Shown: positions 1 to 48,414 of the stretch, one piece after another
Position numbering within the stretch: the stretch's first letter is position 1
Layout: every line of letters starts with the position of its first letter
Made by a program: the position numbers and the translations under genes
Notes under the pieces: generated by a model
Seen by the model: only the letters and a program-made list of their open reading frames with translations
Told to the model about the DNA's origin: nothing
Database searches by the model: none
Assembly: GCA_044892505.1 (NCBI GenBank)
Contig: CM097882.1
Span: forward strand, 336,350,001-336,414,000
Source of the DNA: Schmidtea nova
Lineage: Eukaryota
Reading direction: 5' to 3'
Length of the DNA: 64,000 nucleotides

Positions 1-1236
1 TAAAATCAATAATGTTTAAGTTAAAAAATTGTATTATTGTGAATTTATGGTGCCTTTTAAAGTAAAATTTGGTATACTATTTTAAAATAATATTATATTT
101 CATCTAGTGACAATCAATTTATTTTCACATGAAATTCAAAGATTATTATATTTCGTCTAGCAAAACATTTAAGTATTTTAATTAAAATAATTAATTGTTA
201 CCCTTGTGTATGATAAAAACCATTTTACATAAAAAGTAAAAATGCAAATAAAGTACATATATTAAATTCAGCACTAAGAAAAGATATTGGTAAGCAGTAT
301 TTGTCACTGACATGGATGACCACAACGCTGGTTTATTGGAGTCATGATCATTAGACATTGTCGCGGATTGTTGATTAATTGGGATTTGTCGATTGGATTA
401 ATTGTTTTGGATAATTGTTAGATATTCAAATCTGTCAAATAGATTAAAGTGATAAGACGTTGTTGCTAAGATTTCCGAACTAAGTTTCCATCTGTGTTTT
501 TGAAATTGAGGGCTATGAAAAGAATTAAGTTCAGCAGATCACTTAACTTAAAAATTTACTTGTTTTGCCAATAGAGAGAAATGATTTGCGTAGAAAATTA
601 TGCTTGGTGAATTTGAATGGTGTTCGGCTTGTTGTTGATTGAATGATGGATTGAAACAAATTGTTTCGGAATATCAATTAGTTATAAAAGTAAATTAGTT
701 ATAAATATAAAAATGAAAATAGAAAAAAAACCCTAATGTAGCATTAAAATATTTTCACAAATTAAGAATTAAAGTTTTGATTTTATCGTAAATGCAAATG
801 TAAATTAAAAATTTTATTTTAGAATACTTTCATTAATAATTAACATAAATTATAATATAAGTAAAATTTAATGTTTTATTAGTGTTTTGATGCTCGGAAT
901 GATTTATTTGAATGCAATAATAAATTTATAGTTAGGTAGAATATTAATGTTGAATTGCCGATAAAATTTTGTTGAATGCTTAAAGATAAATCGTCGAAGA
1001 AGGGGACAAAATGGGCAAGAAACCTTCTATCGGTAGCCCTTGGACCCAGGAGATATTCGGTCAATCATAGTTTCGTATTGACGACGCTCACTGATTGCGA
1101 ATACCCACCCACTTGTTACAGTACCAACGTTACATAGTGACGGGTAACAAGGTGGTAATTTCAATATTTTATGTGTTGGGTTGTTGATGAGAGCCATGGT
1201 AACGTCAAGGTCGTATTGACAATCAACAACCCACCA
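1..1236 (+). repeat. 3' part of the 5' LTR (truncated by the window start)
   Basis: No mismatch or indel found by eye versus 20807-22042; identity stops exactly at ...CAACAACCCACCA. Confidence 0.85.
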
Positions 1237-1246
1237 TATAAAAATT

Positions 1247-1264
1247 TGGGGGCTCAGCCGGGAA
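1247..1264 (+). promoter_or_regulatory. Primer-binding site, tRNA-Pro-like
   Basis: TGGGGGCTCAGCCGGGAA versus the canonical tRNA-Pro PBS TGGGGGCTCGTCCGGGAT (15/18), 10 nt after the LTR end. Confidence 0.75.
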
Positions 1265-1943: not shown

Positions 1944-1988
<45 letters not shown>

Positions 1989-2659
1989 GTGACAATGCTA
2001 TTATAAGTAGAGAATATTGTTTTGAGTACCATTTTAAATTGAGATTTGAAAAAAAAAAATTTTGGAAAATAAAAAGTCCCGAATCAGGATCACCGCGAAA
2101 GCGAATAAAAGTTAAGCCGAAAAAACGATCTTTAAGCCCCACGAGCAGCCAACGATTGAAATTGAGAGCGAATAATAACAACAGAGCGTAGAATAAGTGT
2201 CTTTGATACAAATGAACGTCAGACATAGCATGGGATAAAGAGTTGAGCCGGAATGGGCCAAAAGTCTAAGAAAATCACGGCTAAAATAGTAAAAACACCA
2301 AACCGCGACAAATGAATCCCACAAACAACCAAAAATCGTAAAATTGTTCAAATAACGTCCATAAAGCGTAGAAAGTGGGTACACCGCACCGGCAAGTGAA
2401 AAATACCTCGAAAGATAGAATGTGACAACGGAATCCGCAAAAGTGTAGAAAATCGCCGCTAAGAAATTTAAAAGATTGAAGAAATTACGGAATTTTGACC
2501 CAAGAAAGCAGTAACACCAAGTAATAATGATAGTATAGGTATCAGGATTATTATTATTGTCATTTTAACAGTAGAAACAGTAATTTGGTCAAATAATATA
2601 AAAATAAGACGGATTTATTATATCTTTATTATAATTATTACGTAATAATATATAAGAAA

Positions 2660-2865
2660 TATATTGAGTAAATTGCCGTATAACGCGCATTATTATCATT
2701 ATTATTATAATTATTATTATTACTATTATTATTATCATTTTAGTTATTATTAGTAGTAGTACTATAAGCATCTTAGTATAATTATTCTTATTATAATTAT
2801 TATAATTATTATTATTATTACTGTTATTATCATGAGTGTTACTGTAGATGTCATTATTATTACTA
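2660..2865. repeat. Degenerate (TAT)n microsatellite (similar tracts flank the N-gap at 1715-1889)
   Basis: Visible ATT/TAT runs. Confidence 0.85.
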
Positions 2866-3819
2866 ACGAATTCGATGTTATGTTATTTGATTGAGAATGA
2901 CTGAGGTATGACCCCTGTAATTTTATTTTTGTTGGCAAAAAAGGACATGGAAAGTATCGGGTCTGAAAGAAATAACAACGAAAATAGATCAATACGTGAA
3001 TTAATTGTTTTAATTAATACAAGTAGAGAATGAATGATATAATCTAATGAGTTTGAAGTTTGAATGTTGAAAAAGATAGATTGTTGAAGTCAGAATGATG
3101 CATGGTGATATTGGAATGTTGATCGCGACTCAATTCGGGAATCGAAAGCGGGAATAACTCTAAAACCTTATGAAACCATAAAATAAAATCTAACCACGAC
3201 TTAAAAACAAATAACGATACAAAATCAAACAAGAAAAAGTGAGACTTAACGCAAATATGAAAATTTTGAGATGCACAAAATTAGGACCCCAATAAAAGGA
3301 GATGTTATATGACCATGGGATGGAGTCCACACGAACCACATAGAGAATAAATTTTTGAATACACAAAAATTGCTTCCAGTAAACGAAAAATTACCAAAAT
3401 TGTGAATACCGTAAATAAAAAATATAATTATTTTAAAATTGATAAAAAGTGCAAAAATCATGAAAAAATTGTGTAAATAAATGTTTAATTATTTTTTTAT
3501 TTAGAAAATATTAGTATATTAAAAATTTAAAAAATCATAAAAATTATGTACATAATGGCTGATTATTGTAATATTTTATTCGAAAAATATCGAATATGGA
3601 CGAATGGAGAAAATTATAAAAATATAAAAATATAAAAAATATGTATAAAAATGGCTGATTATTCTGTTAACAGTAGTTTTGAAAAAATACAAAAATATAT
3701 AAAAAATTATAAAAATTCGTGTAAATAGCTGTTGAAGTTTTAGTATTTATTTTTCGTTCAAATCATAATGAATGGTTAATTCAAAAAGTTATAAACACCA
3801 GTCATCATGAATATTTTAG

Positions 3820-4302
3820 ATGGAATCGATTGAGCATATTTTACTACGAATCGAGTCGTTTTTCGATTTTGAGAATGACCCATTGCGGGTGTTGAGTGAG
3901 AAACTTGAACGAGTAAATGGAATAAAAGATGAGTTATTGTTGAATCCTAGACCACAACCTGAGAACCTAATAGTGATTGCAGGAATTGTAGGAACAACAA
4001 ACGATGTTTCGTTAGAAACAATTTACGAATTACAACGATTGCGACTGAATAATCCAAATTTTAATCTAAAAATACAAGAATGGATTGGTAAAATCGATAA
4101 AATCATGGACAAGCTAGAGAGATCGATAAATCAACAGATCGATTCGTTTGAAGGATGCTATATTTGTCGACAAAAAGAAGCGAACATTTTGTTCATGCCA
4201 TGTGGGCATTTGTGTTATTGCCAGCCGTGCTCTAGAGAAATAAAGCGATGCGTAATCTGCAAACAGACAATTGATGACAAAATCGTCGTATTCTGTTCGT
4301 AA
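3820..4302 (+). CDS. 160-aa protein with a C-terminal IAP/MDM2-type RING finger (putative E3 ligase)
   Basis: CYICRQKEANILFMPCGHLCYCQPCSREIKRCVICK; TTTTAG lies immediately before the ATG; intact ORF. Confidence 0.85.
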   Translation: MESIEHILLRIESFFDFENDPLRVLSEKLERVNGIKDELLLNPRPQPENLIVIAGIVGTTNDVSLETIYELQRLRLNNPNFNLKIQEWIGKIDKIMDKLERSINQQIDSFEGCYICRQKEANILFMPCGHLCYCQPCSREIKRCVICKQTIDDKIVVFCS

Positions 4303-4631
4303 AGAATGTCGTTCGAAATAAACGTTTTAGTCGTGTTGAACTTCGTCGATCATCCAGTAATACAAACCGTTATAAAATTAAATAAACAAAAAACATTAGG
4401 TAATTAATAACTGAGAATCGTGAAAAAACATAACAAGTAACGGCTAATGCCGAAAAATCAAACATTAGGAAAATGGGAATTTGTGGCAAAGTTATTTTCT
4501 TTTCTTTTTGAATTTTCTTTATTATTATTATTATAAATCCTCCTCATCATTATTATATTGAACCGAATTTCATTACTATAATCTTTCTTATTACCATTAT
4601 TATATTGATTATCATTATTATACTGATCATT

Positions 4632-5200
4632 ATATATATAAATATGTATGAATTAGGACGAGCAATAAGTAGCGTTATAGGAGTTGATTTTATAAGGAGA
4701 ATCTTCTGAAATAGAGCGATAAATGAGTGTCTGAGTAGGAAACAGGAAAATAGTACACAAATTCATAACTGAGCTATCAAAAGATAGTACGCCAAATTTT
4801 AACAGAGCTATCAAAAGATAGTACGCCAATTTTTTTATTATTGTTGAAAAATTAGTAGACAACAAACGGGGAAAAACCTGATCACCTTAAGGAGAAAGTG
4901 TAGAATAGGCCCCATCGCAAATGTTGATAAATTTCGTTTGTGACTGATCACCACAAATTGCGAAACGAGTTGACGCGATTTTTACGATTTTGAATTAGGT
5001 GAAAGGGCTAAACCCGTAATGTTCGTCTTATACACCAGTTTGCCAAGGCATGATTGGTACACTGAGGTAGAAGACAGTAACATAAGTAAGGAGAAAGTTG
5101 CTGAGAAAATTAGATGCAGATTTTAGAAAGTCGAAAGAGTAAAAAGCGAATTTCGATGATTATAGTAGATGATAGTTTAAATAAGAAAAGATTCTACCAT
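4632..5200 (+). pseudogene. Possible decayed ORF of unknown product
   Basis: Protein-like reading (...RDFYDFELGERAKPVMFVLYTSLPRHDWYTEVEDS...) interrupted by several TGA/TAG; no family recognised. Confidence 0.25.
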
Positions 5201-5343
5201 GGTAGTTAAGGAATCGATTCATAATTGAGAAGTAGTAGAACAATTTGAGAAAAACAGTCAGCAACAGCGAATTTAGTTAAAAATTTGAGAATAGGGAAAC
5301 GAGTGATTGAATAGCATAAAGAGAATAATCGAAGACGGCCGAG

Positions 5344-6118
5344 AAAAATTGAGAAACTTTGAGAGTTCATGTATGTGAGAGACTTTGAGAGTCCAGAAAA
5401 TTGAGAAACTTTGAGAGTTCATGTATGTGAGAGACTTTGAGAGTCCAGAAAATTGAGAAACTTTGAGAGTTCATGTATGTGAGAGACTTTGAGAGTCCAG
5501 AAAATTGAGAAACTTTGAGAGTTCATGTATGTGAGAGACTTTGAGAGTCCAGAAAATTGAGAAACTTTGAGAGTTCATGTATGTGAGAGACTTTGAGAGT
5601 CCAGAAAATTGAGAAACTTTGAGAGTTCATGTATGTGAGAGACTTTGAGAGTCCAGAAAATTGAGAAACTTTGAGAGTTCATGTATGTGAGAGACTTTGA
5701 GAGTCCAGAAAATTGAGAAACTTTGAGAGTTCATGTATGTGAGAGACTTTGAGAGTCCAGATAATTGAGAGACTTTGAGAGTCCAGATAATTGAGAGACT
5801 TTGAGAGTCCAGGTAATTTAGAGACTTTGAGAGTCCAGGTAATTTAGAGACTTTGAGAGTCCAGATAATTGAGAGACTTTGAGAGTCCAGATAATTGAGA
5901 GACTTTGAGAGTCCAGGTAATTTAGAGACTTTGAGAGTCCAGATAATTGAGCGCTCTGGGAGAGACTTTGAGAGTCCAGATAATTGAGAGACTTTGAGAG
6001 TCCAGATAATTGAGAAACTTTGAGAGTTCATGTATGGGAGAGACTTTGAGAGTCCAATGTTTGTGAAAATTGAGAAACTTTGAGAGTTCATGTATGCGAA
6101 AGACTTTGAGAGTCCAAT
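5344..6118. repeat. Minisatellite: about 30 x 26-bp monomers, the left part organised as a 52-bp dimer
   Basis: Core ACTTTGAGAG; GAAAATTGAGAAACTTTGAGAGTTCA + TGTATGTGAGAGACTTTGAGAGTCCA repeats with period 52 (5395 to 5447); 26-bp variants follow after 5760. Confidence 0.95.
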
Positions 6119-6886
6119 GTTTGTGAATATTGTCGAGAAATTTAGGAAAAACGTTTGAGAAATAGAATTAAATAAAACTGCAGTTATAATTTTGTTATGA
6201 TAGAGAGAAACGTTGAACGCGAATACTTAAGATGTAGTAAGAGAAACCGTTAACAAGAGCAGACAAAGATATCGAGAAATACCTAAGAAATAAAATAATG
6301 GCCATGAATAGATAATGAACAAGACATTTTTTTTATAACCTCGAATGCCGAGATGAATATGAAAACGAGTCGACAGGATCCTATTATTATTATAGTATTA
6401 TTATTGTTATTATTATTGTTATTATCAGGGTATAGATAACTGATACGACCATATAGATAATTATTACGAGATATAGATAATTTAAAATCTGAGCTCAGAA
6501 TAAAAGGGGGGTAAATGGCGTCGATGAAGAAGCGATATTTTTATTTAGATTGTCCAACAGATCAAAGTCAAGCCAAGAGATAGTCAAATCAATCAGTTAT
6601 TGAAGAGGTATATATAGAAGAAAAGAAGAAAAAGAAGTCTAATTGAAAAGGAAAGAAGTAAAAGAAAATAAATCAAAGAAGATCCAATTGAAGATAAACG
6701 AGAGATCAGCAATCGATATTAAACGCAAATTGATAATACTACCAAACCAACCAAGTTCGTAAAGTCGAAAGATAAAGAGTCAAATCTATTAAAAACGACG
6801 AAAGGAAATTACAAAGAAACAAAGCTGATAAATAAAGAAGAAAAATCCACAATATTTGAAAGTTTGTAGCCGATTTTCAGAAAGAA

Positions 6887-9800
6887 ATGGAGGAGAATCA
6901 GAAAGTTACCAGTGCAAACTCAGAAGATAATTTATTAGAAGAAGAGCAGAAAATAACCAGCCCAAACGTAGAAGATAATTTACAGGAAGAAGAAAAAGAA
7001 GTAGTAACAATGAAAATGCAACTACAACGGAATATCGAAGGAAAAGTAAATGAAATGATAACCGAATTATCAGACGTTGAAATCGAAAGAAAGGGAAATG
7101 TATATGAATTTTCAGTAAAAGATATGGAGGGAGAAGAAAAGAAGAAGTTTGTGGAGAAATATAACCGAAAAAGAAGAGAAAGAAGAAGCAATGATGATAC
7201 CTGTAGCATGGACGAGAAATGGGATGAATCTACGACAATCAAATTAGAAGAAGTGGCACAAAGATTGTTAAACATTACCATAGAAGAAATGGCGAAAATG
7301 AATCAGAAATCGGAAGAAAAGAGGAAATCAGCGAAGCTCGAAAGATTAAGACAAACAGAAACGTCAAAGACCGAACGATTAATCAGTAACTTAAGCAAGC
7401 GTGCAGGAAATCAATGTGAAACAACAACTGAATTACTAAAATGGGTTATAAAAAATAGTGCAAATATATCCAACATGAGATTGATAGTGAAAGAAATCGA
7501 GAAATGCAGACGTTTATGCCCTTGGTATTCAACACAATTTGATGACATCATGAGAAAATGGAAACAACTGGAACAAACAAATGATGATCCACAGATGTGC
7601 AGATTGGAAATTCAGTTTCCGAGTCTAGAAGAAATAAAGATGAATGTAGCATTAACAACAAAGATCAAAGAGATAAAAGAGAGATTACCATTCAATTTAC
7701 CATTTCACTTGAAATATGATGGAGAATCGCTGGATGATGATATAGAAATCGGTGTAACCCCGATACAAATCGAAACAAGTAATAATTTAACTGTCGATAA
7801 AATTGCAGGAAGCGAGTTGACCAGAAAAGCGAGAGGTGAAGATGACCCCGAGACAACGATAATTGCAATGATGAAAACTCCAGCTGGACCAACACTTACA
7901 AGTAACATCGAAGTTAATGGCGTAAAAATAGACGCGATGATAGATACTGGCGCAAATATATCAGCAATAGATATCGATATGATACCAGAAATGTTACGGC
8001 TATGCATCGAGAAAACATCAGTAGACGTAATAACATGCAGCAAAGAATCTGTTAATATCGTTGGAAAGATATGGACAGACATCGAATACAGAAATGTAAA
8101 AATATCAACTTATTTGACAGTAATAAAACAACTGGGTGCCTCATGCATTATTGGAACAGACTTAATACCAAAACTGTTAAAAGGATCTGTAATTGATTTG
8201 AATACGATGAAGTTGGAACACCAAATTGAAGAGAATTACACAAGAGAAACAATGATAGAACAATCAAATCCAGAAACAACCAGAAAAGGACAAGTATATA
8301 TGTTTCGAGAGAATAAAAATGATGATTGGTTACATCGTATATTAACTACGAGCAGAAAAGTAAATCAGCCAACAACAATATCTGAACAACCTAAGGTAGT
8401 TGACGATGTAAAAATGGAGCACCGCAAAAAGATGGAATTGATCATTGAGATTACCAAAGAAATTATGCCAGAATGGTCAAAAAGTAAAAATCTATTTGAA
8501 ATATTGGGAGGAGCAAGCTTAATGGTTGAGGAATATGCCAAAGGAAATGAGACGACAGAAGCGATGAATACCATAAAAGAAAGATTACCAATACTATTTA
8601 CAATTGCCAGTTTTAAAGATGAGATACCATTATATCACGTAATAAAAAGTGGGAATGAACAGAGAATGTTTGAAATCATAAAACTCATGGAAAAGTGTAA
8701 ACAACATACCAACACGAAAAACTGGAAAGATCAAACACCCTTGATGGTAGCAATTGAAAAAGGAGGATCCAAGAAACTCATAGCAGAACTGATGAGAACC
8801 GGATCAAGTTTTAAAGAAAGAGATGATAAAAATGAAACGGTGTTATCATATGCAGTGCAAGCAAATAACCATCAAATAATCAAATATATTATGTCAAATG
8901 CGACAGAAGAAGATATTGAAGTGCTCAGTTCAGATCCAAATCCATTAGTAAATGCAGTGAACAAAGATGCAGACGAAACAACAGCCAAAATGATTAAATG
9001 GTTACATCCAGTTACGCACGAAGGAGTGATAAATGTCAATGACAGATTTGAAGACGGTGAAAATATGATAATGAAAAGAGCCATGAAAAGAAAATGGAAA
9101 ATGTATAAAACGATTAAAGCATTGCTGCGAAGACCTGATTTCAAATTTACAAACAACAAAAAAGAAAAAGAAAGAATTGGATCTAAAAGACATGAATTAT
9201 ATCAGCAAGTCATCATATGGAAAGAACATATAAAAGAAAGCAGAATTCACCGAAGTTGGAACAATGCCAAAGATGAGATAACCAAGAGAGCAAATATAAA
9301 AGCCGAAGCAGATGAAATAGCTAAAAGGTACGAGGAAATAATAAAATTAATAAATGTCGAGGACGACATTTTAATCAGAACCGAGGGTGGTGCTGATGAG
9401 CACAATGAGCCTGACGATGAAGATGAAGGGAATAACAACAACAAAACAAAGAAAGATGACAATGAAAGTATCAACAGAAACAATGACAAAGACGAGAAAG
9501 ACGATGGAAAAAGCAATAACGATGAAATTGGGAACAAAGGTGATGAACCCAAGCAAGAAACTTCAAATTATGAAAAACGAACAGCATGTCTACATAAAAC
9601 TCGAATAAAAGACATAATATTGCTGAAACTGAGGCTGTCAACATTGAAAGGAACGGAAGCCGATGATAAAAGAAAACCAGTACAAGTATTAACATCAGGA
9701 GCAGATAATAAAGAAGCATGTTGGAGTAGCATCAATTTGCAAAGTAAAGGAGATAATCCAGTCAAAAGTCAACGAGCAGAAGGAGGAGAAATCCGAATAA

Positions 9801-9997
9801 ATGGATTAAAACGAGAAACAAAATATAAAATCTGTGTTTACAAAAAGAAAGCATCACAAGAAATGTTTAGAACACTCGTATGTCAGATAGTAACACATAA
9901 TGGTTCAAAAGTCACCCAAGAAGACATAAAAGTCATATTAACCGACGAGCCAGATGAGAACATCAGGATGTCGTCGAAACGCAAGTTGTCAGAGTAA
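6887..9997 (+). CDS. 1036-aa multidomain protein: charged N-terminus, ubiquitin-like domain (?), retropepsin-type aspartic protease, ankyrin repeats, D/N-rich linker, possible FN3-like C-terminus
   Basis: IEVNGVKIDAMIDTGANISAI (DTG at 7943) plus IIGTDL; ankyrin repeats KDQTPLMVAIEKG and KNETVLSYAVQANN; Ubl-like LEIQFPS...TKIKEIKERL...LKYDGESLDDD; FN3-like IRINGLKRETKYKICV. Confidence 0.85.
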   Translation: MEENQKVTSANSEDNLLEEEQKITSPNVEDNLQEEEKEVVTMKMQLQRNIEGKVNEMITELSDVEIERKGNVYEFSVKDMEGEEKKKFVEKYNRKRRERRSNDDTCSMDEKWDESTTIKLEEVAQRLLNITIEEMAKMNQKSEEKRKSAKLERLRQTETSKTERLISNLSKRAGNQCETTTELLKWVIKNSANISNMRLIVKEIEKCRRLCPWYSTQFDDIMRKWKQLEQTNDDPQMCRLEIQFPSLEEIKMNVALTTKIKEIKERLPFNLPFHLKYDGESLDDDIEIGVTPIQIETSNNLTVDKIAGSELTRKARGEDDPETTIIAMMKTPAGPTLTSNIEVNGVKIDAMIDTGANISAIDIDMIPEMLRLCIEKTSVDVITCSKESVNIVGKIWTDIEYRNVKISTYLTVIKQLGASCIIGTDLIPKLLKGSVIDLNTMKLEHQIEENYTRETMIEQSNPETTRKGQVYMFRENKNDDWLHRILTTSRKVNQPTTISEQPKVVDDVKMEHRKKMELIIEITKEIMPEWSKSKNLFEILGGASLMVEEYAKGNETTEAMNTIKERLPILFTIASFKDEIPLYHVIKSGNEQRMFEIIKLMEKCKQHTNTKNWKDQTPLMVAIEKGGSKKLIAELMRTGSSFKERDDKNETVLSYAVQANNHQIIKYIMSNATEEDIEVLSSDPNPLVNAVNKDADETTAKMIKWLHPVTHEGVINVNDRFEDGENMIMKRAMKRKWKMYKTIKALLRRPDFKFTNNKKEKERIGSKRHELYQQVIIWKEHIKESRIHRSWNNAKDEITKRANIKAEADEIAKRYEEIIKLINVEDDILIRTEGGADEHNEPDDEDEGNNNNKTKKDDNESINRNNDKDEKDDGKSNNDEIGNKGDEPKQETSNYEKRTACLHKTRIKDIILLKLRLSTLKGTEADDKRKPVQVLTSGADNKEACWSSINLQSKGDNPVKSQRAEGGEIRINGLKRETKYKICVYKKKASQEMFRTLVCQIVTHNGSKVTQEDIKVILTDEPDENIRMSSKRKLSE

Positions 9998-10149
9998 CCA
10001 GTGGAAGGAACAGTGTATATAGTGTATAAAATTATATTGTATTATAAAAGTAGAATATATTTGTATAATAAAAATTTAAAAATCCAAAAAATTGAATACC
10101 TAAAAACTGGGAAAAACAAATGATAATATTGTGTAATTATTTGACAGAA

Positions 10150-10785
10150 ATGAATCCGAACAACGAGAGTCAAAGTTATCAAACATCAGTTCCAACGTTC
10201 AATGAACCATCAAATCAAATTCAGTTTCCAGAAGATACCAATATACGAGAAAGAGAAAGGTCACTGCAGACCCCAGTAATCGAAAATGAAACGCAAAATC
10301 CAACAATTGATGATAGAAATCTGATATACCAAGTCGAAATTCCACTGTTTGATGAAACCATGAACCCAATTCAAACGACATTCGTATTAAATCAACAACT
10401 AACAAATAGCCAGACTCAATCAATATCAGCTCCGATGGTTTATCAGCAGACAATGACGCAAGAGTTATCATGGAAAACGCAATGTGAATTATTAAGCAGG
10501 ATGTTGAATCAAGCCTACGCACAATGGAAAAACGAACAAGCTTTGTTAACAGAAAGTGTAAACAGAAATTTATTATATCTTGCTAAAATGGAAGAACAAC
10601 AACAAATGATAATCCAAAAGGACCAGAGAATTGAATGGTTAACAAGACATACGGAGTGGCAAACAAACGAAATCAGAAGATTGAATGAGACGCGAGAAGA
10701 AGTTAGAGCATGGTATAACTGGTTAGACAATTTTCCAGAACCGGTTCGAGAGCCTGACTCGACGGGAAGGGATGAACTATTATAA
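10150..10785 (+). CDS. Q/T/P-rich N-terminus plus coiled-coil protein (about 211 aa), unknown function
   Basis: Open frame 10120-10785; ATG 10150 follows TTTGACAG-AA; heptad-like Q/E/L-rich C-terminal half; contains PIQTT. Confidence 0.7.
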   Translation: MNPNNESQSYQTSVPTFNEPSNQIQFPEDTNIRERERSLQTPVIENETQNPTIDDRNLIYQVEIPLFDETMNPIQTTFVLNQQLTNSQTQSISAPMVYQQTMTQELSWKTQCELLSRMLNQAYAQWKNEQALLTESVNRNLLYLAKMEEQQQMIIQKDQRIEWLTRHTEWQTNEIRRLNETREEVRAWYNWLDNFPEPVREPDSTGRDELL

Positions 10786-10879
10786 AAATTTAAAACCAGT
10801 GTAAATAAAATGTAAAAATGTGAATATGAATAAAACTTGGTATAAAGAGCAGAATGAAAAAATTGTAAATTATTTTAGA

Positions 10880-12283
10880 ATGCAGACCGAGAATCAGCAG
10901 AAACAAGAAGAATTGATCGAACTATATCAGATACTACAGAGACAACGGATAGAACCAACAGAATTTCAAGAAAGATTTAAATGTAAAGTATGTAGAAATT
11001 TATTGATAGAACCCAGACAAACTGAATGTGGATGTCGAATATGCACTAATTGCGTGACGAAAGTAATACGAACAAAACAGAAGCTATGTCCTGAATGTGG
11101 TGAAGCAATAATAGACCAATTTGACCAAACCAGACCAGATATCGCAATGAATCGGGAAATAATGAACGCAGCAACAACCTGTCCAAACAAACCATGTGTA
11201 TGGAGTGGGCCAATAAAATGGATCGCCAAACACCTTTATAATTGTGATGATACGAAAGCTAAATGCAAGTGGTGTGAAGAAGAAATGTTGAAGAAAGTCA
11301 AAGATAGTCATGAGGAAATGTGTGAACAACGACAGGAAATATGTGAGTTTTGCAACGAAACAGACGCTTGGATAGTGTTAAAAGATGAGCATTGGAATAT
11401 AGAAGAAGGGCAAGTATGTGACGAGTATGAAGGTAATTGTAATCAATGTGGAATGGCAGAAAACGTGAAGCTAAAAGAACATTGGGAAATATGCGAAAAG
11501 AAGCCTACTGCATGTCCACTAAAATTATTCAATTGCAAAGTAAGATTACCAAAAGAGGAAATACAAAAGCATGTAGATGAAAATAGTGTAAATCATTTGA
11601 GAACCGTTGTGGAAGCTATTGGAGCAACCGCACTGGTAATTGGAGAAGCCAACACAGAAATAAAATCTCACAAAATCATGATACAAGAGATGTTGGATAC
11701 GAGAGGAAATTTTGAAAGAATAAGAGAACAAATGATCCAAAAAATGATACTATTAGACCAGAAAATAGCAGAAATATCAACAATCCAACAAAGATTGGAA
11801 AGCATATTGCCAACAATGGAAGAACTACCCGTCACACCCTACTATTGGAAAATCACAGAATTTACAGAGAAATTGAGACTAGCAAGAGAAGGAGGTCAAC
11901 GTGTATGGACAAGTCCACCTTGTCATAGTTGGAAACATGGTTACAAGCTTAGATTCAAAGTATATCTAACGGGAGACGGACTAGGAGCCGGAACTCATTT
12001 ATCTGTATATTTTCAAATATGTAAAGGAGATTATGACGATTGGTTAGAATGGCCCTACGATTGCGATATAGCTATGAGGATCGGAACAAAGGAAAACAAC
12101 GTTCGGGAAGTATTCAGACCAAACTTGAAGAAGGTAGAAGCAGCTTATAAGAAGCCGATCGAAAACTACAACGTAGCTGTAGGAAATCCACGTTTTATTG
12201 CATTACATTATTTAACCACAGAACAATCATTATATTTGGTAAATAATATCCTGTATCTGATTATCGAAGTGAGGAAGCCGTAG
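10880..12283 (+). CDS. TRAF-family protein (RING, TRAF zinc fingers, coiled coil, MATH), TRAF2/3/5-like
   Basis: RING CKVCRNLLIEPRQTECGCRICTNC...CPEC; CPNKPCVWSG zinc finger; MATH YYWKITEF...GYKLRFKVYLTGDGLGAGTHLSVYF...LEWPY. Probable start 10880 after TTTTAG-A. Confidence 0.93.
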   Translation: MQTENQQKQEELIELYQILQRQRIEPTEFQERFKCKVCRNLLIEPRQTECGCRICTNCVTKVIRTKQKLCPECGEAIIDQFDQTRPDIAMNREIMNAATTCPNKPCVWSGPIKWIAKHLYNCDDTKAKCKWCEEEMLKKVKDSHEEMCEQRQEICEFCNETDAWIVLKDEHWNIEEGQVCDEYEGNCNQCGMAENVKLKEHWEICEKKPTACPLKLFNCKVRLPKEEIQKHVDENSVNHLRTVVEAIGATALVIGEANTEIKSHKIMIQEMLDTRGNFERIREQMIQKMILLDQKIAEISTIQQRLESILPTMEELPVTPYYWKITEFTEKLRLAREGGQRVWTSPPCHSWKHGYKLRFKVYLTGDGLGAGTHLSVYFQICKGDYDDWLEWPYDCDIAMRIGTKENNVREVFRPNLKKVEAAYKKPIENYNVAVGNPRFIALHYLTTEQSLYLVNNILYLIIEVRKP

Positions 12284-12502
12284 CGAAGATGGAAAAAGTG
12301 TAAATATGTCTGTATTATAATGAAGTATCTGTATCATAATGTACAAAATAAAATTAAAAAATCACAAAAACATAAAAATTAAAAAGAAATATAAAAATGA
12401 GAAAAACCGAAAAATCAAATATAAAAATGAGAAAAATCAAAATGTTGTAAATATAGAAAACAAAAATTGTGAAAATATAACGGAGAAAATATTGTAGATA
12501 CA

Positions 12503-13672
12503 ATGACTGAAAGGAAGATCGTGAAAATACGAGAAGATGACAGATCATTCAAAAGTTTGTGCGAATTAATGAAAAGAGGTAAAGAAAAGAAGTCAAAACC
12601 AATTACCTCAGAATTGATTTATTGCCAATTTACACGAACAATATCAAATGTCCCCAAGGAAAGAAATTATGGCAAATTCAAAACTATCGATGAAACGTTG
12701 AAAAATGAGAACCGAAGATATATAACCTTTCTACAACAAGACAATTTCTATGAGAAGCAATACAGAAAATTCGCCAAAGAGGGTTTGTATTTTGCAGGGA
12801 CAATCGAGAAACCCGATAAAGTAACTTGTGTATTTTGCAGAATTGAAATAGAACCTTGGAGAATTAACGATGATCTACTAACAGAACATAGAAAACTTTC
12901 ACCCACATGCCCGTTTGTGTTAAAGGCATACGAAAAACCAAGAAAACCAGCAACAATGAACAATGATGAAGAAGAAAAACCCAAAATAGTAACGATAACT
13001 TCAACAGGTCCAGCAAAGATACGATTCATAGAAATTGATCCAAAATATACGATTAATGGGAGAACTGACACCTTTGCAGATAAAAAGATGGGTATCAGAT
13101 TAGCAATAGAAGGTTTTTATGCAATAAATGAATCAACCGCTGAATGTTCAGAGTGTGGAATACAATATCAATTACCAAAAGAAGAAGGAGAATACCTGAA
13201 ACACAACGAATATTGTAAATATGGAGAAGAATTATATGAAGACGAAGAACCGATCAATTATAAAAACCCAGAGATGCCTGTTAATGAATTATTAGTAGAT
13301 AAGATATTAGACGAACCACGAACTCAAAAGGCAATGGAACGTACCGGCAAAAGCGAAATATTTGTGAAAGAAGTTATCAGAGAGAGATTGAGAAGAAATG
13401 GAGAAACATTTGGATCAACCCTAGAATTTTTCAAAGCTATAATACAGTTCACCAGAAAATCTAAAGTTGTCAACCCAGAATCATGTATCAAGAAAGTTAT
13501 ATTAAATAAACACCCCTGTTCAATCTGTTGGATAAAGAAAGTGGAAGTTATTCATTTACCGTGTGGACATCTGTTGGCATGTGAAAATTGTAGCAATAAA
13601 TTGAGATTGTGCTCAATGTGCAGGAAACCGGTCGACAAACGGATCAAGGGATTTCGTTATGCCGATCAATAA
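12503..13672 (+). CDS. Inhibitor-of-apoptosis (IAP/BIRC-like) protein: BIR, degenerate second BIR, C-terminal RING
   Basis: BIR FAKEGLYF...DKVTCVFC...W...DDLLTEHRKLSPTCPFV; second R.TF...LAIEGFY...CSEC...H...C; RING CSICWIKKVEVIHLPCGHLLACENC...CSMCR. Confidence 0.93.
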   Translation: MTERKIVKIREDDRSFKSLCELMKRGKEKKSKPITSELIYCQFTRTISNVPKERNYGKFKTIDETLKNENRRYITFLQQDNFYEKQYRKFAKEGLYFAGTIEKPDKVTCVFCRIEIEPWRINDDLLTEHRKLSPTCPFVLKAYEKPRKPATMNNDEEEKPKIVTITSTGPAKIRFIEIDPKYTINGRTDTFADKKMGIRLAIEGFYAINESTAECSECGIQYQLPKEEGEYLKHNEYCKYGEELYEDEEPINYKNPEMPVNELLVDKILDEPRTQKAMERTGKSEIFVKEVIRERLRRNGETFGSTLEFFKAIIQFTRKSKVVNPESCIKKVILNKHPCSICWIKKVEVIHLPCGHLLACENCSNKLRLCSMCRKPVDKRIKGFRYADQ

Positions 13673-13806
13673 TCCAATCAAGCAACCTTGTAAATAAATT
13701 GTAAAAATTTTAACTATAATCGATGTATACAAGTATTATTTAATAAGCATGAGCCACAAAAAATGTATAAACAAAAGGAAATTACCCATGTTATTATTAT
13801 TTCAGG

Positions 13807-15354
13807 ATGAATATACAACAATTGATAAACATCCTAGATCAGGAGATGGCCAAAAGACAAGAACAACTAAATCAAATGAGAAATTATGAACAAAGAATGG
13901 AAGCCATCCAAGAGAACGTTAAAATGATTGAGAAACGAACCCAAGAGATCAATAAAATAAAAGAGGAAAATGAGGAACTACGAAAAATAATAATCGACAA
14001 GGCACATATCGAAGCTGAACTAGACAATTATAAACGAGAGTACAGGGAAATGGAGAGAAAACTCGAGCACGAACAACGGAAGTCGGTACCGTTGAAAAAT
14101 CAAGCGAGATTAAGAAAAGAAGAGCTCGAAACTTATAAAAGAGATACCGAAACAAGGTACGACAACTCCATAAGATTCTATCAGCAGCAACTCGAAAGTG
14201 AAAGAAACAGATATGAAGCCATGAAAAAGAAATGGGAAAAGTGTCGAGATGAAGCATTTGTTTTGAGAGGACAACCTCAAAAGAAGCTTAAAGTCAGAAC
14301 AAGAAACATTGAACCTGAAAGCGAACAAGAAAAGATCATTAGAAAAGTTAAAGCAGAGGCTAGGAAATGGAAACAAGAACATCAAGATTTATTGGAAATG
14401 GCTCGACACAGAAAAATGCTACACGAAGAATTATTAAGACGGAGAGACGTTCAAATCGAGGCTCTGAAAGAGGAATGTCATTGGTATGCAGACATACGTC
14501 ATGAGGAAACGGAGAAACTCAGAAAAGAAATATTCCAGTTGAAAACGAGCGGGCAATTCAGAGAACGAAGCATAAAGCATCAAATAAAGTGGCTAAAAGA
14601 ACAAGCCAGAACATGGAAAAAGACCTGGAAAAGAACTCGAGACGAACTACGAGAATTCCCAAAGAAGCTGATGTCAATAAATGAAGCAGAATTGTGGGAA
14701 AATGCAGAAAAGCAAGAGATAGAAAACAAAGAATTAAGACGGCAAGTTCAATTAAAAACTGAATGGAATCAAAGGAGAATGAAATTTACCAGGAATCAAG
14801 AAGCTCGTATCAAATATCTGGAATTTGAAAATAGGCAATATGATCAACAGAAAAACATGGACGATAGAAGTATTGAAGAATTGACAATCGAATTGACTAT
14901 TGCAAACCGTGAAGTCAACGGATATCGAGGAACAAATACGCATAAAGACATTGTCATTCAACACCAGCGACGGCAGATAGAAGAAACAAAGGCCGAATGT
15001 GAGAAAGCGATCCAGCAATCGCAGTATGAGATTGAAATGGCTATCCAAAGTTTGGAAGAAAATCGCCAAAACTATGAAAGAGAGATTGAAAGGTTGAAAA
15101 ATATGGAAAATACAAGAGAGCTCGAGATAGAAAAGGAACAGCTGAGTGAAGAACTCGATTACATGACATATTTGCTAGATGAAGAGATAGAAATCTCAAG
15201 AACTTTACGAGAGAGAGTTCAGAGCCTACAAAATCAACCTCCAATAATTCTATGGCCACTATATCCAACACCAATACAACCTGTACATTTGGAGCAAGAA
15301 AATCCTCAAATCGAAGATGAAGGGTTCGGAGAAATTGAAGAGACGTTTGTATAA
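13807..15354 (+). CDS. 515-aa long coiled-coil protein with a Pro/acidic tail, unknown function
   Basis: Intact E/K/R/Q-rich ORF; TTTCAG-G precedes the ATG. Confidence 0.8.
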   Translation: MNIQQLINILDQEMAKRQEQLNQMRNYEQRMEAIQENVKMIEKRTQEINKIKEENEELRKIIIDKAHIEAELDNYKREYREMERKLEHEQRKSVPLKNQARLRKEELETYKRDTETRYDNSIRFYQQQLESERNRYEAMKKKWEKCRDEAFVLRGQPQKKLKVRTRNIEPESEQEKIIRKVKAEARKWKQEHQDLLEMARHRKMLHEELLRRRDVQIEALKEECHWYADIRHEETEKLRKEIFQLKTSGQFRERSIKHQIKWLKEQARTWKKTWKRTRDELREFPKKLMSINEAELWENAEKQEIENKELRRQVQLKTEWNQRRMKFTRNQEARIKYLEFENRQYDQQKNMDDRSIEELTIELTIANREVNGYRGTNTHKDIVIQHQRRQIEETKAECEKAIQQSQYEIEMAIQSLEENRQNYEREIERLKNMENTRELEIEKEQLSEELDYMTYLLDEEIEISRTLRERVQSLQNQPPIILWPLYPTPIQPVHLEQENPQIEDEGFGEIEETFV

Positions 15355-15445
15355 ATAATAAAAGTGAATGTAAAGTGTAAAAAGAAATTGAAATGTAGTG
15401 TAAAAAGAAAACGTTGTGTAAAAAGAAAAAGTTGTAAAATATATC

Positions 15446-15492
<47 letters not shown>

Positions 15493-15656: not shown

Positions 15657-16232
15657 ATGAGATTATTGAAGCAAAGATCAGAACCAGAACAACAAACGAT
15701 ATCAAAAGAAAGATTCAAAAAATGGAAAAGGGCAACAGAGCAATATTATCAAGACCAAATAGACCAATTGAAGGAAGTAGTGAGCAAAGATAGAAAATAT
15801 ATCGCGCAAATGGAGCAAGAGTGCGAGACGATGGAAATAATCAAGCGAGAAAATTATTTATTTCGCCAACAAAACGGTCTCACCCAAAAATATTGCGACA
15901 GACAGAAGCAAGAGATTGACAGACTCAAGAAGGAAATAAGCAGTGAACAGAACACTGATAATAAAAGGAGAATTAAGATCGAGTCACTACAACGATCATT
16001 GAAGAACAAACAGAAAAAGATTATCAAAAGAGAAAAACAGATAATAAAGTTGAAAAGTGAAATCATAGAAGCAAAATTCGATACGTTCAAAGCAAAGAAA
16101 GTTGTAGAAATCAAAACGGCAGAAAATTACGTCCTCAAAGAGCAAAGGCGAAAAGAAGCAGACGAGATTGCAAAAATGGGTAACTGGAAGCCAGAAAGTC
16201 CGCTAAAGCTAAATGAAGAGACGAAAGAATAA
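15657..16232 (+). CDS. 191-aa basic coiled-coil protein, unknown function
   Basis: Intact ORF; TTATAG-AAA precedes the ATG. Confidence 0.7.
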   Translation: MRLLKQRSEPEQQTISKERFKKWKRATEQYYQDQIDQLKEVVSKDRKYIAQMEQECETMEIIKRENYLFRQQNGLTQKYCDRQKQEIDRLKKEISSEQNTDNKRRIKIESLQRSLKNKQKKIIKREKQIIKLKSEIIEAKFDTFKAKKVVEIKTAENYVLKEQRRKEADEIAKMGNWKPESPLKLNEETKE

Positions 16233-16327: not shown

Positions 16328-17152
16328 ATGAGCAATCTAATGAGGATCACAACAACCATCGTGATAGCTATAATTACAAACTGCCGAAGCGAAGAAGCAT
16401 TGAGCCAATGTCAAGCAAGCCATCCATTTAGAAGATCCGATAGCATTTGTGCAAGCTATCAAGAAATTTGTATCACCAGAAATGAGGAGTGTCAACAGAT
16501 CCAACTACAATGTCAACAATGTCCAAAATCCAGAGAAGATTCAATCACTATTCTTAAACAGCTAAAAAACGAAACCCAACAATTAATCCAACTACAAATC
16601 TCCTTAACCCAAAGGAACAATCTTCAACTAAAGAAACAACTCGAAAGCCAATCATCCTTCAAACAGTTAACAACCGAACTAAAGAAATTGAGCAAGTTAA
16701 TAGAAAAATCTCTAAATAATAAAGATGAAGTTAATGAGGAAAGATCAAGTTTCACAGAAGAGTTAAATCAAAAACTGAAAAGTCAACTTCATCAGACCGA
16801 GAGAATTATAAAACAATTGATATTACCCGAAAAGCAAAGGGAGATTATCCCTAAACAAGGATCAACCAACAAAGACGTCAGAGACCGAGAAGCAGCCATC
16901 ACAGTCGTTCTACAAGGCCTCAGTCTTTTCACGGTCATAATGATCCTTAGCATTGTTGCATCAATCGGAGTAGAAAAAATGAAATTAGAGAAAGCAAAAA
17001 TCCAGTTGAATACCATTAAACGAATCACCCATGAAGACAACAACCCGTCAGAGAATTTTCTAAGATCAATATTTGAAGATCCAGTTCCAGAACCTCCTAA
17101 TCCTGAGACATCTACAACCTCGGTGCAGATGAATTATTTCTATAAACAATAA
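16328..17152 (+). CDS. 274-aa predicted type-I membrane protein (signal peptide, 6-Cys segment, coiled coil, TM, cytoplasmic tail)
   Basis: N-terminal ITTTIVIAIITNC; six Cys within residues about 27-65; hydrophobic AAITVVLQGLSLFTVIMILSIVASIGV; Pro-rich tail. Confidence 0.75.
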   Translation: MSNLMRITTTIVIAIITNCRSEEALSQCQASHPFRRSDSICASYQEICITRNEECQQIQLQCQQCPKSREDSITILKQLKNETQQLIQLQISLTQRNNLQLKKQLESQSSFKQLTTELKKLSKLIEKSLNNKDEVNEERSSFTEELNQKLKSQLHQTERIIKQLILPEKQREIIPKQGSTNKDVRDREAAITVVLQGLSLFTVIMILSIVASIGVEKMKLEKAKIQLNTIKRITHEDNNPSENFLRSIFEDPVPEPPNPETSTTSVQMNYFYKQ

Positions 17153-17744: not shown

Positions 17745-20700
17745 TGTTGGGCCAAAACCCAATTTGTTTTAATAAAGCGATAACCCCATAGGTAGAGAAC
17801 GCGCAAGATTCCATTTTAACCTTTGCTTCCATTAAAAAAATCCAACAATTAAGCGGAAAACACCAAAAGGTGAAGATGAATCAAAACACAGCAACCGGTA
17901 GAATGCGCGCTAACTGCGAATTTATAGATATTTCCACTGAAATCTCGAGAAAAATTAAAAGCAGAATGTTTGGAAGCTAGAATAGGCAAAAAACCCATGG
18001 AAAGTGCCCATAAAGAACAGAATTTTATCATAAAACCTTCAAGTGCAGAAAAACTAACACAATTCTAGAGGAAAATTGTGAATTTATCACAAAATTTCAC
18101 ATATAACAATAGAAAGAATTAATATGGATCGAAAATCATAAATTAAATCAAATCGAACAAATTTCGATTCAAACATAGAAATTTTGAATAAAAATAAATT
18201 ATTTATAGTTTATAAAAAATTATTATACAAAAATATGGAATTAATTTTCGGAAAATCATTAGAATTAATTTAGAAAAAATTAAGAGAAACTTCTAGAACA
18301 ATTTGTTTTATTGCACTACCGGAGATAGAGAAAATTTGATGGTATATATACCGCCATCAAAATGGCAGATTAGACAGAATTTTGTGGAAAATTTTTCTTG
18401 ATTAATTTGCGGAGAAATTGCGAAAAATAATTTTTGTGAAATCCAACTTGAGAATTTGATTGCAAGAAGAAAAGCTAATTTGATTTCAAGAAGAGAAGAG
18501 AAAAGCTAATATCAGAATTTGATTCCAAGAAGTTACTATCAGAAGTTGATTCCAAGAAAATTTGTGGAAAATTCGTTCCAAATTTCTAAGAAAAAATTAA
18601 TTTGTTTGAAAGAAATCGTAGCAGAAGTTAATTGGACAAACGTAAGGATTTGTTTGATTTTGGTTATTCTCATTGGGGATTGGAATGGTCGTCCATCATG
18701 CCTGACGATCATCCCATTCCCCCCTTTTTTATTTAATATGTTATTTGTCATTTTATTTATTATGGTCAATTTTATATTATTAAAGTATTTTCATGATTAA
18801 TAACTTAGTTTTTTTTTTTTTTTTTTGTTGTCATAATCATTATCACGAGCCACAATTTCCCAAAATAATTCAGGAAAGATCTCATTGAAATTCGAAAACT
18901 AAATTAAATTATGAAAATAAATAAAAATTTTTTTTTTTTATCTCCCATATCTTCTGACGATCCGTCCAGCCTTGGTTGTGCGGATCTGTTAGTAGCCTGG
19001 GTGGATCGTTGTCTGATTGGTAATCGGCCAGCCCATATTTCCACTTTAAGGTGAGGCTCATACATCCAAATTCGCGTCATCCCAACTGGGGAATCGCGGT
19101 TTGACCAAGAGCAAGGTTTTGTTATACTAATGATTTGTATTATAATAGAGTATCATATTTTTATTATCTACATAAGCAATTTCGTAATACAACATAATAA
19201 TTTCTACCTCATGTCTTGAAATCTAAAATAGGAAATATTATTGATTAAAAAGTCGACTCGTACTCACCTTCGCCTTCACACTCTCAACAACGTTCATCTC
19301 ATAAGAAAATGCAAGAAAAATGGATGCTGATGATGAAAAGAAAATGGTTCGAAATAATGCTCAAAGTCTAGAATAATGCTCATGAAGTGAAACAAATTGT
19401 GAAACAAGTATTGATTTAATCTGAATTAAAGCTCATTATGGTCTAAATAAGTTTTCCTGTGAATCTTGTTTTTCGAGAGCCTGAAATTCCTAAGTGAAGT
19501 GTCCCGAAAAATTCGCGTACACTTGGTTGGGAAATTCATGCTCAACAAAACCGAAATTTACTTTGCTTGAGGTTAAAAATATTCGCTGAAAAATTTGTAA
19601 CTTATTTTTATTTTATTTTTATTTAGCATATAAAATTTTTTAGATTAAATGCTTATTTAGATCTCGAATTTATGGATAAAAATTTATTATCATTTCATTT
19701 GGATCAGAAATAGAAATTTGCTTTTTATTATGTTGAAAAGATTTTATATGGAAAAATTGTAAACCAAATTTGGTTCCTAATGTTATTAATATATGAAAGA
19801 TTTTATCATTTCGTAAAATTCCCGAGAATTTGAAAATCAAAAGTTATATTAAACCCCATGAAAATTTAGATTGAAATTTTATTATTATATTAATAAATTT
19901 TATTATTTTATAAAAAATCTCAATTCGAGATTTTATAGAAATTTTTTTTATCTATTCTTAAAGTATAAAAATTGTAAATTCAAATCGACATTATAAAAAA
20001 TTATAAACCTTATCGTTAATTGTTTTTCGTAGAAATTTTAAAACTTAAAAATTTGTAAAAAAGTATTATGAGAATTGTTATTATTATTTCGATCTAAAAA
20101 TTATTATTATTATCTTGATCTAAAAATCATTACCATTAGTTTAATTTTAAATTTTTTTTTTATGTTAACTTAAAAAATATTTTATACAATTTATTTAATT
20201 TATAATATAACCCCCCACGACATCTTAAAATAATAATACATCACTCATTGCAAAGATTTACACCCTTTTCACTCAATAGCATCATCCATATTAATATACA
20301 AACAACATACACATAAAATACAATACACACACATGCACAGTACCATTCAATAACATCCAACAATCACATACACACCAACAAACCTTATCAAAATTCCACA
20401 CAGACATTCTAGTTAGAATCGTTCATCTAACCACACTCATAAGCACTCAATTGTTTTAAATCACTCATCATACAATCACACACAAACACAACAGTAACAA
20501 TAGGACACACAGTCATCATACTACACCTCATCCACCAATAAATTATTTACTCTCATCCAACATTCAAGTCAACATACAGACACATATAATCACATACAAT
20601 CTCCCGCACTATCAATGAAAAATTCATAATAAACCTGTAAAAGTGTATCAACAATCAAGCTCGAAATGATAGTATCCCACATCATACGTAAACATGCATA

Positions 20701-22042
20701 CCTCCAAAAAGACAATGCCAAGGTTTCATCCATTCACCCACCACAAACATTTGGTGTGGAACCTTTTTATTTGTAACGGATATTAGGAAGTTTTCAAGAT
20801 TGCCTTTAAAATCAATAATGTTTAAGTTAAAAAATTGTATTATTGTGAATTTATGGTGCCTTTTAAAGTAAAATTTGGTATACTATTTTAAAATAATATT
20901 ATATTTCATCTAGTGACAATCAATTTATTTTCACATGAAATTCAAAGATTATTATATTTCGTCTAGCAAAACATTTAAGTATTTTAATTAAAATAATTAA
21001 TTGTTACCCTTGTGTATGATAAAAACCATTTTACATAAAAAGTAAAAATGCAAATAAAGTACATATATTAAATTCAGCACTAAGAAAAGATATTGGTAAG
21101 CAGTATTTGTCACTGACATGGATGACCACAACGCTGGTTTATTGGAGTCATGATCATTAGACATTGTCGCGGATTGTTGATTAATTGGGATTTGTCGATT
21201 GGATTAATTGTTTTGGATAATTGTTAGATATTCAAATCTGTCAAATAGATTAAAGTGATAAGACGTTGTTGCTAAGATTTCCGAACTAAGTTTCCATCTG
21301 TGTTTTTGAAATTGAGGGCTATGAAAAGAATTAAGTTCAGCAGATCACTTAACTTAAAAATTTACTTGTTTTGCCAATAGAGAGAAATGATTTGCGTAGA
21401 AAATTATGCTTGGTGAATTTGAATGGTGTTCGGCTTGTTGTTGATTGAATGATGGATTGAAACAAATTGTTTCGGAATATCAATTAGTTATAAAAGTAAA
21501 TTAGTTATAAATATAAAAATGAAAATAGAAAAAAAACCCTAATGTAGCATTAAAATATTTTCACAAATTAAGAATTAAAGTTTTGATTTTATCGTAAATG
21601 CAAATGTAAATTAAAAATTTTATTTTAGAATACTTTCATTAATAATTAACATAAATTATAATATAAGTAAAATTTAATGTTTTATTAGTGTTTTGATGCT
21701 CGGAATGATTTATTTGAATGCAATAATAAATTTATAGTTAGGTAGAATATTAATGTTGAATTGCCGATAAAATTTTGTTGAATGCTTAAAGATAAATCGT
21801 CGAAGAAGGGGACAAAATGGGCAAGAAACCTTCTATCGGTAGCCCTTGGACCCAGGAGATATTCGGTCAATCATAGTTTCGTATTGACGACGCTCACTGA
21901 TTGCGAATACCCACCCACTTGTTACAGTACCAACGTTACATAGTGACGGGTAACAAGGTGGTAATTTCAATATTTTATGTGTTGGGTTGTTGATGAGAGC
22001 CATGGTAACGTCAAGGTCGTATTGACAATCAACAACCCACCA
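17745..22042 (+). repeat. Complete 3' LTR, 4298 bp (family A)
   Basis: Starts TGTTGGGC at the same point where homology to 22057-26006 begins; ends CCCACCA; its last 1236 bp match 1-1236. Confidence 0.8.
18343..18350 (+). promoter_or_regulatory. Candidate LTR TATA box
   Basis: TATATATA in GATGGTATATATACCGCCATC; conserved at the aligned position of the sister LTR (22703-22710). Confidence 0.45.
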
Positions 22043-48354: not shown

Positions 48355-48368
48355 TAATAATAATAATG

Positions 48369-48414
<46 letters not shown>

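Follow-up and report, generated by a model that had tools for sequence, protein, structure and literature searches.

Why would an intact retropepsin be followed by ankyrin repeats, at a place where the rest of a gag-pol polyprotein would be expected? The question is raised by an open reading frame (ORF), here called POLY, in a 64,000-nucleotide window of the Schmidtea nova genome (assembly GCA_044892505.1, contig CM097882.1, positions 336,350,001 to 336,414,000, forward strand), which is the whole stretch that was analysed and to which the coordinates below refer. An earlier note on this DNA had taken POLY for an unusual architecture of ubiquitin-like (Ubl), retropepsin, ankyrin and FN3-like parts, with a redeployed protease. 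The analysis described here points, with good though not full confidence, to POLY as an old deletion derivative of a giant Ty3/gypsy polyprotein of the Burro type, belonging to a non-autonomous long terminal repeat (LTR) family that probably depends on a complete relative for copying in trans, and having a protease that is likely to split the product three ways, releasing a helical-Ubl part, an ankyrin part and itself. The oddest feature of the locus, which the note overlooked, is a high-copy, recently mobile, non-autonomous family with ORFs under purifying selection.

Probable origin of POLY from a giant polyprotein

6887..9997, plus strand: POLY, intact ORF for a 1,036-residue, apparently deletion-derived polyprotein (ORF list, Pfam, alignment to the relative)
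6980..7315, plus strand: helical post-Gag block, residues 32-143 (alignment to the relative)
7340..7579, plus strand: four-helix bundle, residues 152-231 (AlphaFold model, predicted local distance difference test (pLDDT) score ~80; no specific fold match)
7592..7810, plus strand: likely SUMO/ubiquitin-like domain, residues 236-308 (weak, sub-threshold PF11976 match)
7859..7873, plus strand: candidate cleavage word IIAMM before the protease (TIAMM in the relative and 6/28 copies)
7874..8215, plus strand: retropepsin, DTG at 7943-7951 (66% identity to the relative's protease)
8291..8305, plus strand: candidate cleavage word QVYMF before the ankyrin block (QVCMF/QICMF in 20/28 copies)
8402..9376, plus strand: ankyrin-containing helical block, residues 506-830 (Pfam match at residues 595-672), the most constrained part
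9377..9601, plus strand: acidic low-complexity linker, neutral evolution (copy variants)
9659..9907, plus strand: single remnant FN3-like domain (alignment to the relative's fn3-positive repeats)

The complete relative measures about 29.8-30 kb and has LTR ends, primer site and leader as in the POLY family (the leader mostly at 80-96% identity). Its polyprotein, 4,892-4,906 residues long and unbroken in 3/6 copies, runs in a 4,893-residue example in the order Gag, zinc knuckle, MATH, fusion-protein Env, protease, reverse transcriptase (RT), RNase H, integrase, ankyrin and fn3. Four blocks of POLY are collinear with it: residues 32-143, 154-314, 311-443 and 469-986 align with the relative's 441-552, 1322-1482, 2629-2761 and 3805-4342, at 41%, 54%, 66% and 41% identity, respectively. 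Gone from POLY are Gag, the MATH region, about 1,150 residues including Env, about 1,040 residues of RT, RNase H and integrase, and the downstream FN3 repeats together with the transmembrane helix, and the Ubl-protease and protease-ankyrin adjacencies would thus exist because the intervening parts were deleted. Synonymous divergence (dS) between POLY and the relative is 1.2-1.7 across the four blocks, and in a protease tree POLY clusters with the complete relative and a sister family (99/98 support), apart from other Env-bearing elements. A relic copy (L238) holds Gag and zinc-knuckle remnants inside its N-terminus, yet its protease is already joined to ankyrin, which suggests that Pol loss probably preceded Gag loss. 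An origin of POLY from spliced RNA is unsupported, as inspection by eye found no evident GT..AG pairs at the block ends in the relative's DNA, where the joints are blurred by divergence.

The end of the relative's polyprotein (residues ~4245-4893 in copy L222) carries a signal-peptide-like stretch, several FN3-like repeats and a transmembrane helix, and may form a second membrane protein; POLY is without this helix and its signal-peptide-like stretch has degenerated. No BCL2 or dUTPase match was found by Pfam in the relative. The complete relative has also given rise to a younger deletion form (L193 and L197, with L236 and L237), present at 2/40 sampled sites, in which only the ankyrin block, FN3 repeats and half of the integrase remain; the identity of L193 to the complete relative is 96%.

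Domain searches bore out the intact DTG protease claimed by the earlier note, with Pfam RVP matching residues 340-430 above the cut-off (E 6e-5), Asp_protease matching below it (E 3e-4), and the catalytic DTG (codon 7943) unchanged in 28/28 copies. Ankyrin repeats do follow the protease where RT was expected (Ank_2 at residues 595-672, E 3e-9), RT being absent from the internal region. The description of this module as IkB-like found no specific support: only two repeats are clear by motif, the PDB matches were generic ankyrins with no IkB among the 60 of 61 listed, and a Rel-domain family search of host DNA gave no match. In protein databases, POLY matched generic ankyrins plus one small protease.

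The Ubl fold placed upstream of the protease stands in part. When searched alone, residues 236-308 match PF11976 below threshold (E 0.004), a match seen only for POLY, and the corresponding segment of the relative occupies the SUMO-like place between MATH and Env. The best PDB sequence match (E 0.098) is presumably a SUMO-like peptide. An hhalign comparison with ubiquitin was not significant and AlphaFold left the piece unfolded (pLDDT <50), so that this segment is best described as a likely SUMO/ubiquitin-like domain. Ubiquitin and SUMO carry GG at their end; the POLY domain ends in IAG (7799-7810) across all three families aligned, which is possibly a processing or conjugation end. For the C-terminus, homology to the relative's repeats, which match fn3 above the cut-off (E 1e-6), supports the FN3 assignment, while the tail's own Pfam match is weak (E 0.063); in the ESM Atlas its best matches are fn3 clusters (0.90, 151/256 features), a lead only, and the tail is likely an FN3 domain.

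A capsid fold in residues 1-235 is not indicated, given that residues 32-143 align downstream of the relative's Gag and zinc knuckle (its Retrotrans_gag lies at residues 55-148, versus 441-552 for the segment matched by POLY) and that residues 152-231 form a generic four-helix bundle. The single-sequence AlphaFold model of POLY was unusable (pLDDT 37.5). With the helical-Ubl model, Foldseek gave no specific match (best E 0.19, the Ubl portion being barely tested) and a VIA fold search gave none either, its best score (Z 9.5) falling on generic helical repeats and TFIIS-type LW/TND domains recurring at Z 7.4-7.9, tied with many others. The ESM Atlas returned no usable match for residues 150-316.

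A non-autonomous LTR element carries POLY

1..1236, plus strand: 3' portion of the 5' LTR, identical to the 3' LTR (the LTR starts 3,062 bp upstream of the window; copy L021)
1247..1263, plus strand: primer-binding site, 10 nt past the end of the 5' LTR, common to the complete relative and the sister family
3820..4302, plus strand: RING-finger ORF in the leader (94% identity to its counterpart in a complete relative)
5345..6116, plus strand: tandem array in the leader, 26/52-nt unit (occurs in complete relatives too)
6874..6880, plus strand: splice-acceptor-like TTTTCAG immediately 5' of the POLY ATG (motif only, putative acceptor)
10120..10785, plus strand: 221-residue orphan ORF (ORF221), under purifying selection (copy comparison)
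10826..12283, plus strand: full TRAF-like gene with RING, zf-TRAF and MATH (domain search)
12503..13672, plus strand: BIR-RING inhibitor-of-apoptosis-like gene (IAP; domain search)
13807..15354, plus strand: coiled-coil-like ORF, 515 residues (~27-31% identity to a 3' ORF of the sister family)
15657..16232, plus strand: charged ORF, 191 residues, no clear family (Pfam)
16328..17152, plus strand: 274-residue ORF without a Pfam family; by eye, hydrophobic at the N-terminus and in internal stretches
17745..22042, plus strand: 3' LTR, identical to the 5' LTR

The element spans 25,104 bp, with two LTRs of 4,298 bp (TG...CA, zero mismatches between them), a 4-bp target-site duplication (CAAT) and a primer-binding site that we take to be tRNA-Pro-like. 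Among five further copies examined, the three full ones have 4-bp target-site duplications and LTR identities of 99.9-100%. When the internal region (1237-17744) was searched by tblastn with the complete relative's domains, Gag, Env, RT, RNase H and integrase were all without a match. POLY is borne by a retroelement and is not a host gene, and the element is a non-autonomous LTR retroelement, having LTRs, a primer site, a target-site duplication and many young copies without RT or integrase.

Directly 5' of the 3' LTR (17725-17744) a purine-rich tract is absent; this flank bears a loose resemblance to the reverse-complemented primer-site side (1237-1263), and the sister family has a similar flank. 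The last 250 bp of the LTR (984-1236) match a dispersed repeat, found also at 25755-26006 and 31755-31930, in both orientations and at 77-95% identity, with no Rfam match; across the window from 1 to 26500, Rfam matched nothing.

Purifying selection after the deletions

Selection was assessed in 28 copies sharing the deletions; mutation bias was estimated at four-fold sites, and variants were counted when present in at least three copies. For POLY as a whole, omega was 0.38 (100 synonymous and 117 non-synonymous shared variants; p 5e-12), and singletons gave 0.63. The constraint is unevenly spread: omega was 0.14 in the ankyrin block (35 synonymous vs 16 non-synonymous shared variants), 0.33 in residues 1-150, 0.37 in the protease and 0.44 in the helix and Ubl segment, with 0.67 (not significant) in the linker and 1.31 in the acidic linker (5 synonymous vs 18 non-synonymous). 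Cargo ORFs gave 0.10 for ORF221 (24 copies), 0.10 for TRAF (18 copies) and 0.17 for IAP (18 copies). The N-terminal part, the protease, the ankyrin block and the TRAF/IAP cassette have thus been under purifying selection since the deletions. Replication proteins have been lost yet cargo is selected, and selection therefore acts via the cell, the host or a helper.

Copy numbers and possible helpers

A primer-site pattern combined with the LTR end gave a position-ordered list of sites, of which 40 were sampled; 27 were POLY-type, six complete-type, two another deletion form, and five had no match. Exact active-site patterns, each family-specific, counted at least 1,523 POLY-type and at least 267 complete-type copies, both figures being lower bounds (the POLY pattern caught 23/27 sampled copies). 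In a protease search of the genome, the best 150 of 6,543 candidates were all at least 97% identical and lay in frames of at most 1,081 residues.

An 800-bp leader tree of 33 rows, which left out three POLY copies with a short match or none, nests the complete copies among POLY copies, and POLY was monophyletic in 0/200 bootstrap trees; mean leader identity is 90% between POLY and complete copies and 92% among POLY copies. The leader looks to have been recently exchanged between the two, and such exchange, despite the old divergence of the ORFs, would be the expected trace of template switching in shared particles. Because LTR ends and primer site are shared and the leader is recombinant, trans-mobilisation by the complete relative is the reading we favour.

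The sister family has the same primer site (673 pattern matches) and the same modules at 25-53% identity, carries TRAF, coiled-coil and small ORFs but no IAP between polyprotein and 3' LTR, and has young copies. One of its copies (L162-L164) has a 3,960-residue ORF in which Gag and Env are retained and the protease is fused straight to ankyrin, an arrangement that points to independent loss of RT, RNase H and integrase. Another group, comprising 14-17-kb elements (L057-L058, L079-L080, L089-L090), has a single ORF of 3,030-3,370 residues in the order Gag-BCL2-Env-protease; these are abundant small Burro-like relatives with other primer sites, and RT, RNase H and integrase were confirmed in one that was scanned throughout. 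As helpers these BCL2/Env-bearing families were rejected, their LTRs and primer sites being different and their protease identity at most 25%. A Gypsy-env family search gave no match, and one for the dUTPase family was uninformative.

Proposed processing and expression

A profile was built from six recurrent domain-border words of the relative's polyprotein; when that polyprotein is scanned with it, three border words kept out of the profile come up at ranks 4, 9 and 10. Cleavage-like words flank the POLY protease, and for this reason self-processing that frees the ankyrin module is the likeliest reading of that protease; the relative has QICML at its integrase/ankyrin border, matching the pre-ankyrin word of POLY. 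Cuts at the two retained words, by POLY's own or a helper's protease, would yield three products, namely the helical-Ubl part, the protease, and the ankyrins with the FN3 tail. As POLY has a degenerate signal-like stretch and no membrane anchor, these products would probably reside in the cytosol.

A spliced RNA using the acceptor-like site upstream of the ATG is the likely template for POLY translation. Spliced RNAs are suggested because the CAG of this motif is retained in 23/27 copies and similar acceptor-like motifs precede several other ORFs of the element. No clear splice joint was seen among the listed matches from four sequencing runs of unspecified kind, represented by contigs only, which carries no weight either way. 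The element's RNA would be co-packaged with the complete relative's machinery, and the freed ankyrin piece likely acts alongside TRAF and IAP to adjust survival or immune signalling in the cell that expresses the element, an effect that would keep POLY, TRAF and IAP selected.

Several points weigh against this account. The two words of the window copy rank only 6 and 8 of 1,029 windows, while commoner variants in other copies rank first or second, and the absence of Gag is a difficulty for dimerisation of the protease. Constraint on the FN3 tail does not reach significance (omega 0.66, p 0.14), and the full POLY ORF is intact in just 13/27 sampled copies, the broken ORFs in the other 14 being expected from decay after insertion or from assembly error. 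A direct autonomous ancestor of POLY was not found, the complete relative being a sister lineage, and the helper could alternatively be the sister family, whose primer site is the same and whose RT is 92% identical.

Relation to known elements

Burro1 has been described as encoding a 4,873-residue polyprotein with a SUMO-like domain after MATH and with BIR and ankyrin cargo, and Ubl, protease and ankyrins are known components of Burro polyproteins (PMC6431247, section 7). The unusual architecture seen by the earlier note accordingly gives way to known Burro parts that deletions have brought together. With Burro1-4/GYPSM1, giant Ty3/gypsy elements of planarians, the window element shares long LTRs, a tandem repeat, MATH/TRAF, protease, ankyrin, BIR and coiled-coil cargo and, less surely, a SUMO-like domain of Pfam family PF11976 (a sub-threshold match here). 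It probably belongs with the Burro lineage by its 4.3-kb LTRs, its 25.1-kb length and its MATH/TRAF, BIR, ankyrin and coiled-coil cargo, a kinship drawn from published modules and size, with no Burro1 sequence among the database matches. Unlike Burro, it is without Gag, Env, RT, RNase H and integrase and carries TRAF and IAP as separate 3' ORFs. Gag, in-frame Env, RT, RNase H and integrase, the marks of an autonomous Burro, are all found in the complete relative, which resembles Burro1 in its order (Gag-MATH-Ubl-Env-PR-RT-RH-IN-Ank) and length (4,893 vs 4,873 residues). The FN3 repeats seen here are unmentioned for Burro in section 7 of PMC6431247, and the available parts of PMC11410931 and PMC8532177 mention Burro in passing only.

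Like other helper-dependent LTR elements (LARD, TR-GAG, ETn/MusD, IAP-I-delta-1, RecKoRV and bovine ERVK D-type), the POLY family keeps LTRs and primer site, outnumbers its putative helper and appears to recombine with it (PMC10924933 and PMC13570524, available parts). It differs from them in its 25-kb length and eight ORFs; purifying selection acts on at least four of these, among them a protease unaccompanied by Gag or Pol and genes absent from the LTR-sharing helper.

A further comparison is with DDI1/DDI2, the product of a cellular single-copy gene with an N-terminal Ubl, a helical domain and a retropepsin with a DSGA-type motif. POLY shares with it a Ubl-like domain and helical bundle before a retropepsin. 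It differs in having the helical part before an internal Ubl, a DTG(A) motif and a cleavage-like word between Ubl and protease, and in being multicopy within LTRs, with a Burro-type protease and an adjacency made by deletion. The likeness to DDI1 to which the note had drawn attention is accidental, because POLY consists of the collinear blocks left after deletion. In the planarian nidovirus PSCNV, known here by description only, an ANK domain has been proposed as an IkB mimic (PMC6211748, available part). In both, a short and divergent array of ankyrins sits within a planarian polyprotein of viral type and is predicted to be released by cleavage; unlike what is proposed for PSCNV, the POLY ankyrins show no specific kinship to IkB/NF-kB.

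Alternative explanations

The strongest alternative, which we hold to be possible but unlikely, is that two complementary halves of one giant retroelement have separated and are packaged together. The complete relative would supply Gag, Env, RT and integrase, having lost the 3' cassette, and the six-fold commoner POLY family, minus the replication genes, would supply a self-processing ankyrin module, TRAF, IAP and other accessory proteins needed for replication or host-cell survival. Consistent with this, all six complete copies have just 0.75-1.35 kb between polyprotein end and 3' LTR and no TRAF/IAP cassette, and the sister family retains TRAF, coiled-coil and small ORFs at the 3' position where the complete relative has none. 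The POLY family's IAP beside its TRAF accounts for 28/30 top BIR loci examined. In 20 stretches upstream of atypical BIR matches, RT or integrase was found in 0/20, 13 holding the whole or most of POLY, three part of the element and four no match. Survival-type cargo thus rides mainly on the defective POLY family in this genome, the cassette genes are strongly selected, and the Burro1 BIR-RING gene has been reported, second-hand, to protect planarian stem cells (PMC13465017, available part). However, the complete relative owns MATH, Ubl, protease and ankyrin parts, and its need for the cassette has no support; the sister family still has young copies without IAP; and an identical selection signal would arise if only the host, or only the carrier copy, benefited.

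That POLY is a passenger of a plain parasite, its apparent selection arising from a few master copies or from an open frame stabilising the RNA, appears improbable. Non-autonomous forms do often outnumber helpers, as in bovine ERVK (85% vs 15%; PMC10924933, available part), and the POLY ORF is broken or shortened in 14/27 copies. Against this, amino-acid change is depleted beyond stops, and unevenly so, as the ankyrin block and the acidic linker show, and the bovine D-type elements are described in the same source as being without intact genes. Similarly improbable is a DDI1-like protease that cuts host proteins recruited by Ubl or ankyrins: the protease does stay intact though its main substrates, Gag and Pol, are gone, but nothing points to the host substrates that the earlier note envisaged, retention of both flanking words is accounted for by self-processing, which would leave the protease detached from either putative adaptor, the protease tree places it with proteases of Burro type, and its adjacency to Ubl is the product of a loss of ~1,150 residues.

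Other elements observed

The interval 36656-42134 is occupied by a second, unconnected gypsy element, 5.5 kb long and broken, that has short repeats and fragments of RT, RNase H and integrase. At 45900-48440, a SWIM-domain ORF (46269-46898) is flanked by inverted 29-nt tandem arrays and is MULE-like. Elsewhere, a 1,638-residue ORF (L093:4183-9099, minus strand) carries HECT, Hsp70 and ubiquitin pieces before DUF1759 and an aspartyl protease, and seems to be a BEL/Pao-like element with captured host genes.

Implications

The modules of POLY are known from Burro, and helper-dependent LTR families are known; what seems new is a non-autonomous Burro-type family with selected ORFs. A literature search found no account of such a family, although primary descriptions of Burro, beyond that search, may hold one. 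Non-autonomous LTR elements are usually viewed as cheaters with decaying genes, and in this case, long after RT was lost, purifying selection still maintains a protease, an ankyrin module and TRAF/IAP genes in a family that presumably depends on a helper. The type of gene reported to protect stem cells when carried by Burro1 sits here mainly on a defective family. Should the less likely reading of two complementary halves be true, this would be a naturally bipartite LTR element bound by mutual need, with the POLY half carrying most of the Burro-type anti-apoptosis genes of the genome. Host-transposon mutualism, and the origin of segmented genomes via complementary deletion, become testable in this system.

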